A stretch of DNA of 35,022 bases from Eledone cirrhosa (GCA_964016885.1 CAXHJY010000885.1:1-35022), one strand, 5' to 3'; shown: positions 1,955-30,315, counted from the first letter of the stretch. Numbers and translations are program-made. Notes: generated by a model not told the origin, from the letters alone.

Positions 1955-2390
1955 ATAACCATCTGCCAGATAGTTGAACGTTCGAAAGTATATACTTTCC
2001 TTATGAAAATTAACGGCTGAGCAGCCTAATTTGCATATTGAGTGAGTTAAATCGGTCAGGCATACCGAAAACGATAAGTTGAAAAAAATGAAAACGAAAT
2101 TTCATTTCTCACTCTTAGTATGGCACTTACTTAAATGTAAGTATGTATGTATACGTACATACATATATGTATACAGACGTACAGTAGCATGCATATATAT
2201 ATATATATATATATATATATATATATATATATATATATATATATATATATACATATATATACATACAGGTACACATACATATATGCACGCATCAGTTTAG
2301 CGGACGCTTATTATAACGCCGCTTTGTTCGTTTGTAAACAAACTGAACAGCCTGAATTTCGGTATGCCTGACAGATTTAACTCACTCAAT

Positions 2391-2438
2391 ATGCAAATTA
2401 GGCTGCTCAGCCGTTAATTTTCATAAGGAAAGTATATA
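2391..2438 (+). promoter_or_regulatory. Putative internal octamer + TATA promoter of R1 unit
   Basis: ATGCAAAT 2391-2398 and TATATA 2433-2438 upstream of the HHR at 2473; octamer also at 2029-2036, 4295-4302 and 4719-4726 (as ATTTGCAT). Function is inferred. Confidence 0.5.
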
Positions 2439-2472
2439 CTTTCGAAAGTTCAACTATCTGGCAGATGGGTAT

Positions 2473-2515
2473 ACGCTGCTGATGATAGCTAACAAGCTTG
2501 AAACTAGTACATCGT
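2473..2515 (+). ncRNA. Minimal type I hammerhead ribozyme (R1)
   Basis: acgctg CTGATGA(2479-2485) tagc taacaa gctt GAAAC ta GTA(2507-2509) catcgt; one mismatch in stem I. Confidence 0.85.
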
Positions 2516-3155
2516 TCCTGTGTCAGTGTTGAACAAAAAGGGGACGTGGTTGCCTTAACACCGTATGGCATAAATTCAAGCTGTTCTGTTTGTTTACAAA
2601 CGAACAAAGCGGCGTTATAATAAGCGTCCGCTAAACTGATGCGTGCATATATGTATGTGTACCTGTATGTATATATATGTATATATATATATATATATAT
2701 ATATATATATATATATATATATATATATATATATATATATATATATATATATATATATATATATATATATATATATATATATATATGCATGCTACTGTAC
2801 GTCTGTATACACATATGTATGTACGTATACATACATACTTACATTTAAGTAAGTGCCATACTAAGAGTGAGAAATGAAATTTCGTTTTCATTTTTTTCAA
2901 CTTATATATACATATATAGAATCAAAGTTGCTGCCGCCATTAGAATTTTTCGAAATCAATCTTTTGAGGCTGGCCAAAGCACTCGATGAGTAGATATCCA
3001 TAAATCGATAAATTATAGTTTAGATTAATGACATTACGTTAAGAGTGCGACAGTGAAAATTCCGACCAGAGACAAGTTACAACAAAAGCCACCACAACAA
3101 CGAAAATAGAAACAGGTTAAAGACAAACCTGGACCTGATCGATAGATATTATTAT

Positions 3156-3340
3156 GGATTGGCAGTATTGGTAGAGAGTCGGACGCCATGCTTTGACGCA
3201 TAGAGTTACGGCCTTTGCCATTCTGAGTTCAAATCCCGCCGAGGTTAATTTTCCTTTCATCCTTACGGGGTCGATAAAATAAAGTACCAGTAATCCACAG
3301 GGTTATTACTGGCCTTGTGCCTAACGTAGAAACAATTATA
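3156..3340 (+). mobile_element. tRNA-derived SINE, full length
   Basis: A-box-like tggcagtattggt, B-box gagttcaaatcc, central ctttcatccttacggggtcgataaaataaagtaccag (resembles the MetaSINE-type core, from recall), AT-rich tail. Confidence 0.9.
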
Positions 3341-3349
3341 TAAATAATA

Positions 3350-3450
3350 ACGAGGTTAACTTTGCCTTTCATCCTTACGGGGTCGATAAAACAAAGAACC
3401 AGTAATACACTGAGTAATTGCTGGCCTTGTGCCAATAGTAGAAACAATTA
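3350..3450 (+). mobile_element. SINE 3' half, tandem to previous copy
   Basis: cgaggttaactttgcctttcatccttacggggtcgataaaa...agtagaaacaatta. Confidence 0.9.
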
Positions 3451-4178
3451 TATAAATATCTTTGATTGGTTTTCAGGTAACCGAAAACTACACTCCAAGT
3501 TGCGTAACATGAGAGCCAGTAATTTATCCTAAGATGGAATGAGGATATCCCATTCTCAACAGGCATTTGGTTCCGTTTTCCATCAGAGTGGCTTAGTAAC
3601 TCCACTACAACCAAGTACAGTTGCAGTAATATTGGCAGTGGGGTCACGTGTTCTTTCTCAAGAAAAGCGTAAGATTCACATCCATGCTTTGGCGGGAAAA
3701 TTACTCAGAGCTATAATGTATCAATTTATCGATATCTACTCATTGCGTGCTTTGAACCAGACTCAGAAGATTCATTTAAAAAAATGCTGATCGTAGCTGT
3801 AACTTCGATAATTTACTCACTAATATATATATATATATATATACATATATATATATATATATATATATATATATATATATATATATATATATATATATAT
3901 ATATATATAAACGGAAAAAATGAAACGAAATTTCATTTCTCAGTCTTAGTACGGCTGTTACTTAAATATAAGTACGTATACGTACATACATATATGTATA
4001 CAGACGTACAGTAGGTTTGTATGTATATATACATACATGCACACATATATATATATGTACGTATGGATTCACCAAATATTTATTATAATGTTCGGTGTGT
4101 TTGTAAACAAACATCCCGAATTAAGCCGTACAGTGTCTAGCAACCAACCTTGCTCATTTGTTCAACACTGACAAAGGA

Positions 4179-4220
4179 ACGCTGTACTAGTTTCAAGCTT
4201 GTAGCTATCGTCAGCAACGT
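4179..4220 (-). ncRNA. Minimal type I hammerhead ribozyme (R1)
   Basis: Minus strand: acgttg CTGACGA tagc tacaa gctt GAAAC ta GTA cagcgt. Confidence 0.87.
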
Positions 4221-4602
4221 ATACCTTCTTGCCAGACGATTGAACGTCTGAAAGTATATACTTTCCTCATGTATATTAACGGCTGAGCAGCCTAATTTGC
4301 ATATTGAGTGAGTTAATCGGCCGGGCGCACCGAAAACGATAAACGAAGCAAATGAAACGAAATTTCATTTCTCACTCTTAGTACGGCTGTTACTTAAATA
4401 TAAGTATGTATACGTACATACATATATGTATACAGACGTACAGTAGGTATGTATATATATACATACATGCATGCACACATGCACGTGTGCATTCACCGAA
4501 CATATATTATAATGCTCGATGTGTTTGGAAACAAACATCCTGAATTAAGCCGTACAGTGTCTAGAAACCATCGTTGCTCATTTGTTCAACACTGACAAAG
4601 GA

Positions 4603-4644
4603 ACGCTGTACTAGTTTCAAGCTTGTAGCTATCGTCAGCAACGT
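4603..4644 (-). ncRNA. Minimal type I hammerhead ribozyme (R1)
   Basis: Same motif as 4179-4220. Confidence 0.87.
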
Positions 4645-28049: not shown

Positions 28050-28553
28050 TCATCTAGCCCCATTTTTACTTGTAGCTAATAAGTTAAATAGCTATGACTA
28101 ACTTAGATAATTATAAGTTACCTCCCCTACATTGTCTCTCAATTAAAAAAATTAAAAATTAGCACTTTACTATAAACTACCCACAATTTCTAACCTCTCG
28201 AGGAGTTACTTCCCCTAAAACCACCCTCTAATTAGTAAGGTAAATATGTCCTTTGGCAGCCATCTTGATACCCATAGGCAGATCTCACACAATGCAGTCT
28301 CGACAGATGAATACTGCTTGATTATGGCTGACAACTGATGCACCTAAGACACCATAGTGAAAAACCAATATATGGAACATTATATTATGTAACATTCTCT
28401 CATTATTTTAATTTATATTCCTTTGAAGTTCCGATAAGCCGCTCTGTTCTTCAAATATGTTAATTATTTTCAACTGAACCAGATCAATTATGATATATAG
28501 AGTCATCTGATCCAGAAATATTATATGGAGTAGCGAAACAATTGTAAACGGAC
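28050..28553 (+). mobile_element. Penelope 3'UTR/pseudo-LTR with degenerate HHR having a long stem II insertion
   Basis: gtt CCGATAA (28431-28437) gccgctct ...about 80 nt... ggagtagc GAAAC aatt GTA (28535-28546) aac. Confidence 0.6.
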
Positions 28554-28562
28554 ATTATTATT

Positions 28563-28735
28563 ATTCGGTAGAGGGTCGGACGCCATGCTTTCCAGCATAG
28601 TTACGTCCCTTTACGATCTGAGTTCAAATCCGGCCGAGGTTGACTTTGCCTTTTATCCTTACGGGGTCGATAACATAAAGTACCAGTAATGCACTGGATA
28701 ATTGCTGGCCTTGTGCCTAAAGTAGAAACAATTAT
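28563..28735 (+). mobile_element. SINE, nearly full length
   Basis: cggtagagggtcggacgccatgc...gagttcaaatcc...core...agtagaaacaattattatta. Confidence 0.9.
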
Positions 28736-29076
28736 TATTAATATTATTATTACTATTCTCTACATTCCTTACATCAAACTAAAATATGTTGACAATCTTT
28801 TAATAATGTCTTCCTTGTGAAATTTGTGGTCTTGTTTTGCTGAACTAATGAATATTTCCAGCTCTGCGCATGATCCCAGCCACCTAGCTGCTTTCTACTG
28901 CATATTGCACATTGAGCACATGCCTTTACGCTTTGGCTTCTAACTAATTCACCAATCTCTCCTCTCCTATCTACTCTCCTATCTCCATCTCTCTCTTTAA
29001 GATTGGTTACACTTGAACTGTATATATATATATATATATATATATATATATATATATATATATATATATATATATA

Positions 29077-29269
29077 TAGGAACGAGTAGGACCCCGACGG
29101 CTGAGCTCAAGCCGTTTCGACGGCTAATTCAGTCCAGAATTACCCGTCTAACGGCTTGAGCTCAGCCGTCGGGGCCCTACTCGTTCCTATTACCCAATCT
29201 ACTACCCTAAGTATTGAGTACTTTGGTGCGTTATGGTCCACCTGATTCCTTACCACATTTCCTTCGTTA
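29077..29269. mobile_element. Family A hairpin + tail element
   Basis: Arms 29077-29130 and 29137-29189; tail 29190-29269; (TA)n flanks; contains GAAacggc ttgagctca gccGTC ggggtcc (minus 29089-29121). Confidence 0.85.
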
Positions 29270-29507
29270 TATATATATATATATATATATATATATATAT
29301 ATATATATATATATATATATATATATATATATATATATATATATATATGTGTGTGTGTGTGTGTGTGTGTGTGTGTGTGTGTATATATATATGTATGTAT
29401 ATATATGTGTGTGTGTGTGGAATTGTGTGGCATCCGATTCTGCATTTGCGAAAATCCCGACGCCTAAGGAAACGTGATACACATTACGTGTATAAAACAT
29501 TATATGT

Positions 29508-29690
29508 GGATTGGCAGTATCTGTAGAGGGTGGGACGCCATGCTTTGAGGCATAGAGTTATGGTCCTTGCCATTCTGAGTTCAAATCCTGCCGAGGTTAA
29601 CTTTGCCTTTCAGCCTTACGGGGTTGATAAAATAAAGTACCATTAATGCACTGGTTAATTGCTGCACTTGTGCCAAAAGTAGAAACAATC
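29508..29690 (+). mobile_element. SINE, full length
   Basis: ggattggcagtatctgtag...gagttcaaatcc...core...agtagaaacaat. Confidence 0.9.
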
Positions 29691-30177
29691 ATATATATAT
29701 ATATATATATATATATATATATATATATATATATATATATATATATATATATATATATATATATATAAACCTCTGATAGTATTGTATAAAGCTATGCTTG
29801 ATGCGAAATCTTATTTCTTTTCTATTATAAGTTGAGCCAACTTATGTAGCTTCATATTGAAATGAGATTAATCACCTCATTTACACAGATAATAAAACTA
29901 TATATTCTCGGCTGATTCAAGTCCAGTAGTCGCACGCTTTGGGTGGGATCGTCCTAACGGAGGCCAGTCAAGCCCTAAATGCATAGACGGTTGTCCCCCT
30001 TGCTTCTGCTGGACACCTTCAGAGGGCGTTAGTTCCCCGGTGTTTGCATAGCTACAGCTTCTGAAAACCCTATTTCTTTAGAAATAAGAATGTTCTAGAC
30101 ATATTGAATAAAGCTATGCTTGAAGCGAAATCTTATTTCTTTTCTATTATAAGTTGAGCCAACTTATGCAGCTTCAT

Positions 30178-30226
30178 ATGCAAATGAGATTAATCTCCTC
30201 ATTTACACAGACGAGAAAACTATATA
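30178..30226 (+). promoter_or_regulatory. Putative internal octamer + TATA promoter of R2 unit
   Basis: ATGCAAAT 30178-30185, TATATA 30221-30226, upstream of the HHR at 30270. Function is inferred. Confidence 0.5.
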
Positions 30227-30269
30227 TTCTCAGCTGTTTTCAAGTCCAGCAGTCGCAAGCGGTGGGAGG

Positions 30270-30315
30270 GATCGTCCTGACGAAGGCCAGTCAAGTCTGA
30301 AATGCATAGACGGTT
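30270..30315 (+). ncRNA. Minimal type I hammerhead ribozyme (R2)
   Basis: gatcgtc CTGACGA(30277-30283) aggc cagtcaa gtct GAA ATGCAT A(30308) gacggtt; palindromic stem III, AUA site. Confidence 0.87.

Follow-up and report, generated by a model that had tools for sequence, protein, structure and literature searches.

Two hammerhead repeat families and their anatomy

In this study, we analysed a stretch of 35,022 nucleotides from Eledone cirrhosa (GCA_964016885.1 CAXHJY010000885.1:1-35022; the window below means this whole stretch), in which two families of non-coding repeats, R1 and R2, were identified. Each unit of these families contains a hammerhead ribozyme motif and, just upstream of it, a promoter-like block consisting of an octamer and a TATA box at fixed spacing. 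The positions of octamer, TATA box and ribozyme core were checked directly in the window sequence, and all lie on the ribozyme-sense strand: in R1, ATATGCAAAT is found at 2389, the octamer at 2391, TATATA at 2433 (+42) and CTGATGA at 2479, and in R2, ATATGCAAAT is found at 30176, the octamer at 30178, TATATA at 30221 (+43) and CTGACGA at 30277. The six coordinates and the strand given for these blocks by an initial annotation of this DNA were exact, and its proposal of a conserved block at fixed spacing immediately 5' of the ribozyme in each unit is borne out at the sequence level.

R1 occupies the window as two inverted insertions, 1670-2905 and 3909-5763. In the first, the left arm (R1a, 1670..2359, minus strand, ~1.4 units) has its octamer at 2036 and its hammerhead core at 1948, with its outer (3') end adjoining a (TA)n run, and is joined to a right arm (also R1a, 2357..2905, plus strand, ~1.15 units), the 5' ends of the two arms meeting at ~2357-2359. 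The right arm contains, all on the plus strand, the extended octamer TATGCAAATTAG (2390..2401), a word identical to that at -76 to -78 in U6 and U6atac genes of the host; a candidate proximal sequence element (2403..2424; core TCAG at 2407, 26 nt before the TATA box; a low score of 3.2 bits with the host U1/U2/U4/U5 matrix); TATATA (2433..2438) within the palindrome GAAAGTATATACTTTC, with a start predicted at ~2463 (TATA+30) from host small nuclear RNA (snRNA) genes; and a type I hammerhead (2459..2525) with CTGATGA at 2479-2485, GAAA at 2500-2503, stem III CTAG and predicted cleavage after 2509. The second insertion consists of a tandem arm (R1b, 3909..5123, minus strand) with units of 424-430 bp, intact octamers at 4302 and 4726 and a third unit truncated at the TATA palindrome, and of an inverted partner arm (5121..5763, plus strand) with a decayed unit in which octamer and core are altered (R1 copy near 5428) and CTGAAGA stands at 5524. 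Several inversion or truncation junctions were observed at the R1 TATA palindrome (window 5121-5123; loci L034, L039 and L077), which is perhaps a hot spot of template switching.

R2 is present as a dimer (29780-30412, plus strand), the first unit of which (29780..30090) is decayed, with TATATA at 29899 and both the octamer (ATTGAAAT at 29856) and the core (CTAACGG at 29954) lost. The second unit (30091..30412, 322 bp) is intact and its 3' end enters a short (TA)n. It carries, again on the plus strand, the extended octamer TATGCAAATGAG (30177..30188), TATATA (30221..30226) within GAGAA..TTCTC, with a predicted start at ~30251, and a type I hammerhead (30255..30325) with CTGACGA at 30277-30283, GAAA at 30299-30302, stem III TGCA and predicted cleavage after 30308.

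The cores of both families consist of CTGAYGA, stem II, GAAA and a palindromic 4-nt stem III (CTAG in R1, TGCA in R2), and stem I pairs across the predicted cleavage site. The hammerhead motif together with stems I-III was found in R1 and R2 and in two further families, R3 and R5, with some copies decayed. A search of Rfam returned no hammerhead family at E<=1 (only microsatellite-driven miRNA matches) and single-strand folds of the R1 and R2 cores were no better than shuffles, and the ribozyme assignment therefore rests on motif anatomy. The units of the families are 310-502 bp long, occur in arrays and at dispersed loci, and have neither a long terminal repeat (LTR) nor, microsatellite artefacts aside, a protein-length reading frame. 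R1 and R2 are almost certainly type I hammerhead non-LTR retrozymes.

It had also been proposed that a small hairpin follows each octamer and that each TATA box sits in an inverted repeat. The perfect R2 hairpin GAGATTAATCTC is indeed present in the window, but it needs a T at 30196, which occurs in at most 2 of 37 distinct R2 copies, the majority having A. The hairpin around the TATA box is significant in R2, R3 and R5 (z -2.7 to -4.1), but it is weak in R1 (z -1.1 and -1.9); such a hairpin was also found in 1 of 16 host promoters. Folded as circles, the units beat mononucleotide shuffles (z -3.4 to -13.9).

The octamer-TATA block and host snRNA promoters

As measured against controls, the arrangement of octamer, TATA box and hammerhead core is far above chance. 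Across the 3.0 Gb of genome scanned, the pattern octamer-N30-40-TATA-N38-56-CTGAYGA had 31,510 matches versus 16 for the reversed control, and in the window TATGCAAATNAG-N28-36-TATA had 8 matches at 5 sites versus 0.00 expected (100 shuffles). Since repeats multiply any word, an unselected sample of 67 stretches of 10 kb at round coordinates (670 kb) is a more telling test than the genome count: there, CTGANGA lies 86-103 nt downstream of 14 of 64 octamers, versus 1 of 203 occurrences of seven control words. With the ribozyme motif alone as the probe, the tandem-type hammerhead families of this sample were R1, R2 and R3, all with octamer and TATA box, and R5, with no octamer; its minimal-hammerhead families had no octamer.

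Outside the motifs, no alignment of R1 with R2 was above chance (spacer z ~0, body z 2.0-2.3), and the description of the two families as unrelated holds as far as can be detected. It does not extend to the third family, as R3 is clearly related to R1 (body z 15-20), and because of this kinship the independent lineages are few, perhaps two or three. It was mostly the octamer that led to families R3 to R9, R5 excepted, and there is kinship among several of them; four of 13 octamer-TATA loci (L230, L237-L239) have no hammerhead. In R4 and R6, the segment with octamer and proximal element is tandemly duplicated upstream of the main block (L075:1400-1560, L227, L234-L236). Another repeat carries TATGCAAATGAGGT with no TATA-hammerhead context (window 25383; L105, L177).

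For comparison with the host, 15 U6 loci were considered, eight of which were left out (six array copies with an insertion between octamer and TATA box, and two with no promoter), together with the best of eight U6atac loci, the other seven having no promoter-like flank, and 10 of 20 U1, 5 of 12 U2 and 8 of 20 U5 loci transcribed by RNA polymerase II (Pol II). ATGCAAAT stands at -76 and -77 in two single U6 loci, ATGCTAAT at ~-78 in five copies of the U6 array and ATGGAAAT at -77 in the best U6atac locus, in each case with the TATA box at -30. The extended word TATG(C/G)(A/T)AATKAG, found at -76 to -78 in U6 and U6atac, is also found in the repeats. R1-R4 and all four U6-class promoters have in common a T just before the octamer (-1) and NAG just behind it, neither of which was part of the family search pattern. 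A proximal octamer is absent from the U1, U2 and U5 loci examined; in the U4 array, a word with one mismatch stands at -109. Of the 15 host U1, U2, U4 and U5 promoters tested, all contain a [TC]CAG core (-55 to -58) and 14 a TATA-like word near -30. A distal word, TTAYYTCCCTT, lies at -257 to -288 in host U1, U2, U6 and RNase P genes and was not found in host U5 and U6atac.

In the U6 array (L093-L103), a SINE-like (short interspersed nuclear element) insertion separates the octamer-like word from the TATA box in 6 of the 11 copies examined, a natural spacing mutant. In the RNase P RNA gene (L138), which has a further layout, the TATA box lies 34 nt and a U1-type core ~68 nt ahead of the start annotated by Rfam; two distal words and a T9 terminator are present, and there is no octamer.

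The initial annotation had likened the block both to snRNA promoters and to those of immunoglobulin and H2B genes. Because the word occurs in host U6-class genes and in none of nine host H2B promoters, the former comparison is the right one and the latter is not supported. In its words, the octamer-TATA block of R1 and R2 is snRNA vocabulary of the host, not an immunoglobulin- or H2B-like one. The distance from octamer to TATA box is 42 nt in R1, 43 in R2, R3 and R8, 43-45 in R4, 40-42 in R6 and R7, and 47 in R9, versus 46-48 in U6-class genes; R1 and R2 thus have the extended octamer of these genes in common with them but not their spacing, which is found only in R9. R1 and R4-R8 resemble host U1-class genes in their candidate proximal core and its distance from TATA, and R5 also in the distal word; none of the host genes examined unites U6-class and U1-class features.

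The proximal element was sought with a matrix built from 15 host U1, U2, U4 and U5 promoters, scoring 169 positions per unit (host leave-one-out scores -3.3 to 21.4 bits). The position 12 nt after the octamer (octamer+12) was the best of the 169 in R1a, R1b, R6, R7 and R8 and the second best in one R4 copy, with no match there in four U6-class promoters (U6, U6atac) or in R9. In the repeats with this match the core lies 26-27 nt before a TATA box, versus 25-28 in host Pol II genes. Between R1a and R1b, octamer with NAG, proximal core and TATATA are identical at 24 of 24 positions, while the body is identical at 177 of 208 (85%) and the leader at 29 of 40 (73%), which, given the rate of change in the body, corresponds to a p of roughly 0.02.

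In R1, R2 and R3, the distal word was not found above chance; a candidate in R2 (8.6 bits, in a fitting place) was rejected as within chance. R5, a 310-bp hammerhead unit with no octamer (L085:2392-3012; L175 array, minus strand), has a distal word of 19.7 bits, a score reached at none of 499,300 background positions, and this word is at the same time the 3' strand of stem I of the ribozyme. It lies 200 nt before the core (201-214 in the host) and the core 27 nt before the TATA box, and by this geometry R5 is an independent case of a U1-type layout. In R9, a decayed hammerhead family, the extended octamer lies 47 nt before the TATA box (L231:1276, L232:1254, L184 minus strand 8811) and T5 runs occur 80-100 nt after the predicted start; it may be a form transcribed by RNA polymerase III (Pol III).

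Penelope-type insertion marks

It has been reported that Penelope-like elements leave 5'-inverted copies, insert at (TA)n or AT-rich targets and start reverse transcription internally (PMC8557442, PMC11167929, in their available text). In our analysis, a 5'-joined inverted partner was found at 16 of 29 R2 loci and 13 of 22 R1 loci (29/51, some R1 loci overlapping), and a convergent one at none. Of 45 R2 3' ends, 34 adjoin TA runs and 43 belong to one of two clusters, at unit positions 107-133 and 154-166, whose limits the TA flanks blur; in R1, an internal microsatellite makes the picture at the 3' ends less clear. Thirteen of 16 R2 partner arms, which were not selected for length, exceed 170 nt and therefore cross the cleavage site, and several extend upstream of the predicted start. 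The R2 insertion template thus included the promoter block, as would be expected of a circle or a multimer. Compared with the pseudo-LTRs of Penelope-like elements as the same two papers describe them in part, R1 and R2 likewise have a hammerhead, a putative internal promoter, copies in tandem and in 5'-inverted arrangement, insertion sites that are AT-rich or (TA)n, and reverse transcription that begins internally; they differ in having no reading frame and in promoter words that match snRNA genes. Because these marks imply a reverse transcriptase and a nuclease, the R1 and R2 elements are non-autonomous. The earlier idea of a unit whose own promoter lies inside the released monomer agrees with inserted copies that cross the cleavage site and contain the block, but that of a self-perpetuating replicon is not supported, since a retrotransposon enzyme is needed.

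Other remnants of mobile elements were observed in the window. At 27300-28049 (plus strand), a 249-aa stop-to-stop frame has a C-terminal part that is GIY-YIG-like by features (score 0.95-0.96), with PF01541 in 31% of one cluster and no Pfam match of its own, and is likely to be a fragment of a Penelope-like endonuclease. Another repeat with a hammerhead core (CTGATGA..GAAA), 5'-truncated and with no octamer in view, lies at 24807-25008 and 26757-26807 in palindromic arrangement between (TA)n runs. Broken frames of LINE type (long interspersed nuclear element) lie at 13510-16904 (plus), 8232-11239 (minus) and 21612-22169 (plus), with PF03372 endonuclease and PF00078 reverse transcriptase on the plus strand and a weak zf-RVT match in the minus-strand element.

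Proposed transcription of the units and its alternatives

Taken together, the octamer-TATA block is likely a functional internal promoter of snRNA type, whichever polymerase uses it. The fuller explanation, in which this promoter is read by Pol II and feeds monomers or circles that are copied by Penelope enzymes, is in our view the probable one. What the DNA shows is the block, in tens of thousands of copies, a fixed distance 5' of the ribozyme. The extended octamer would be recognised by a POU factor or SNAPc, the octamer+12 element and the TATA box by SNAPc and TBP, and transcription would start ~30 nt past the TATA box, at the 5' edge of ribozyme stem I. Pol II, meeting no 3'-box-like word, would pass the T-tracts into the next unit, where, as in established retrozyme work, two hammerheads would excise a monomer and a host ligase would close it into a circle. 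Finally, a Penelope-like reverse transcriptase/endonuclease, to which the insertion marks in the DNA point, would prime at (TA)n targets and start at preferred internal sites, and copying across the cleavage junction would give tandem and 5'-joined inverted copies, each with the promoter again.

Several observations weigh against this explanation. No host gene examined has exactly the layout of the repeats, because the octamer is absent from proximal promoters of Pol II snRNA genes and the spacing is 4-5 nt off that of U6. The proximal-element match of R1 is weak (2.8-3.2 bits), R2 (rank 13, p 0.40) and R3 (rank 40) do not pass the matrix test, one R4 copy ranks fifth, the matches of R6 and R7 fall outside the preset window counted from the first TATA, and the families with octamer+12 matches are partly related and thus not independent; in R5, a site on the minus strand scores higher (8.0) than the proximal element (4.3). 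In a comparison of 37 R2 copies, the octamer block has diverged as much as the sequence on either side of it (0.025 differences per site against 0.023-0.028, with 0.009 for TATATA), a decay that is expected for neutral inserts and is uninformative on function. No accumulation of 5' ends was seen at the predicted start (in R2, 3 of 52 lie within 10 nt of it, ~3.4 being expected; in R1a, 1 of 44), and 5' truncation points were rejected as a proxy of start sites. The sense-strand excess of A>G over T>C that marks edited RNA is absent in R1a (7:7), R1b (6:6), R2 (14:20), R3 (9:8) and R5 (1:1), all small samples. For human promoters, it is the presence of a TATA box that specifies Pol III (PMC3499247, available text), and according to the available part of a review of 2020, metazoan retrozymes seem to be devoid of promoters and to depend on read-through (PMC7761336).

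The alternative that survives best is a true internal promoter of U6 type, read by Pol III, with most transcripts stopping at T-runs and only read-through or circles propagating. The extended octamer, a feature of U6 and U6atac that the proximal regions of U1, U2 and U5 examined do not have, argues for it, as do the human TATA rule cited above, the units with T4 runs only, and R9 with its exact U6 spacing of 47 and its T5 runs. On the other hand, the spacing in R1-R4 is 42-45 and not 46-48, the octamer+12 element of R1, R4 and R6-R8 is of U1/U2 type and at Pol II distance, and host U1, U2 and U5 carry TATA-like words at -30, unlike the human rule. T-runs of 5-7 precede the next ribozyme inside R1a, R3 and one R2 unit, and no 3'-box-like word above chance was found in five units, which together would fit read-through by Pol II. 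We consider transcription by Pol III unlikely.

Less likely still, the words may have been inherited from an ancestral Penelope pseudo-LTR or an snRNA-gene fragment, or be held by the folding of circular RNA, and would drive no transcription today, the RNA coming from outside read-through as the review proposes (PMC7761336, available text). The lack of constraint among R2 copies and of a start-site signature at the 5' ends is consistent with this, as are the RNA hairpin that contains the TATA box in R2, R3 and R5 and the circle folds that beat shuffles. It does not sit well with the motifs and spacing that R1 and R2 have in common while nothing else aligns, with the fit of these motifs to host snRNA promoters in both word and distance, or with R5, which reaches a second host layout with no octamer.

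Promoters of vertebrate immunoglobulin and H2B genes combine octamer and TATA box. A promoter of this mRNA type would account for octamer and TATA box at fixed spacing on one strand and for the lack of a convincing proximal element in R2; however, no exact octamer was found in 10 H2A/H2B regions, all nine host H2B promoters (L282-L290) have CCAAT and a conserved box (CTGGT..AGCCTA..TGTCA) directly before TATAAAT, and the octamer word tracks U6-class genes, which makes this reading very improbable. An autonomous RNA replicon that perpetuates itself with no retrotransposon protein can practically be dismissed: the unit does hold both promoter-like block and ribozyme, and RNA-to-RNA copying has been raised as a possibility (PMC7761336, available text), but the dispersed insertions, with their inverted arms of Penelope type, their 3' ends in clusters and their (TA)n targets, call for both a reverse transcriptase and a nuclease, and the units have no protein-length frame, microsatellite artefacts aside.

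An internal snRNA-type promoter read by Pol II, as preferred here, can be compared with known systems. R1 and R2 resemble metazoan non-LTR retrozymes (Cervera and de la Pena 2020, PMC7229834; Li, Clavereau and Pollet 2026, 10.64898/2026.07.22.740005) in their short non-coding units (150-500 bp), each with a single type I hammerhead, in occurring both as tandem arrays and at dispersed loci, in low GC and in co-occurrence with Penelope-like elements, but they differ from them, as far as the available text of these papers goes, in host snRNA-promoter words and in frequent 5'-joined inverted arms. Circular RNA and cleavage have been shown for the published retrozymes, whereas R1 and R2 are known here from DNA. 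The available text of both papers holds no promoter analysis, with 'promoter' occurring only as T7 or nowhere, and 'octopus' and 'TATA' 0 times. An internal Pol II promoter of snRNA type has been reported for newt satellite 2 (Coats, Zhang and Epstein 1994), a hammerhead tandem repeat whose snRNA-type promoter the initial annotation had also mentioned, and an internal Pol III promoter for a schistosome hammerhead satellite (Ferbeyre 1998; both in PMC2220036, available text). With the newt report, the principle of an internal snRNA-type promoter is already known, and, as non-LTR retrozymes have been described too, the claim of an undescribed system does not hold. What differs from the newt case is the presence of several families with two or three layouts in one invertebrate genome, seen here in sequence. 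The newt promoter reportedly combines a distal octamer with a proximal element and has no TATA box, whereas in R1 the octamer directly precedes the candidate proximal element and the TATA box comes next. The schistosome satellite, reportedly with tRNA-like boxes, is likewise a hammerhead repeat with an internal promoter (putative in R1 and R2), but not with an snRNA-type block. Our literature search, with subscription journals, repeat databases and supplements outside its scope, found neither the compact hybrid of octamer, proximal element and TATA box, nor its host calibration, nor the R5 layout, and no description of snRNA promoter elements for cephalopods. By their anatomy, R1 and R2 are retrozymes of a known kind with a new putative promoter layout.

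How protein-free animal retrozymes reach high RNA levels has been ascribed to read-through in the review cited above (PMC7761336, available text), while the newt and schistosome cases point the other way. To this question the present analysis adds more than 30,000 copies whose block is calibrated against host U1, U2, U4, U5, U6 and U6atac promoters, with predicted starts and polymerase. The host snRNA promoter elements defined here from sequence may be of use for U6-driven expression tools, and the octamer-TATA copies suggest a large genomic pool of competing SNAPc/POU sites. It may be, although this is somewhat less likely than not, that retrozyme lineages have taken up snRNA promoters of their host on several occasions and in several forms: a hybrid in R1-R4 and R6-R8 that would unite a U6-class octamer with U1-class geometry, a full U1-type form in R5 and a U6-spaced one in R9. 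Internal snRNA-type promoters would in that case be the general route by which animal retrozymes are transcribed, and these families would be a natural test set for what decides whether an snRNA promoter of these animals is read by Pol II or by Pol III.

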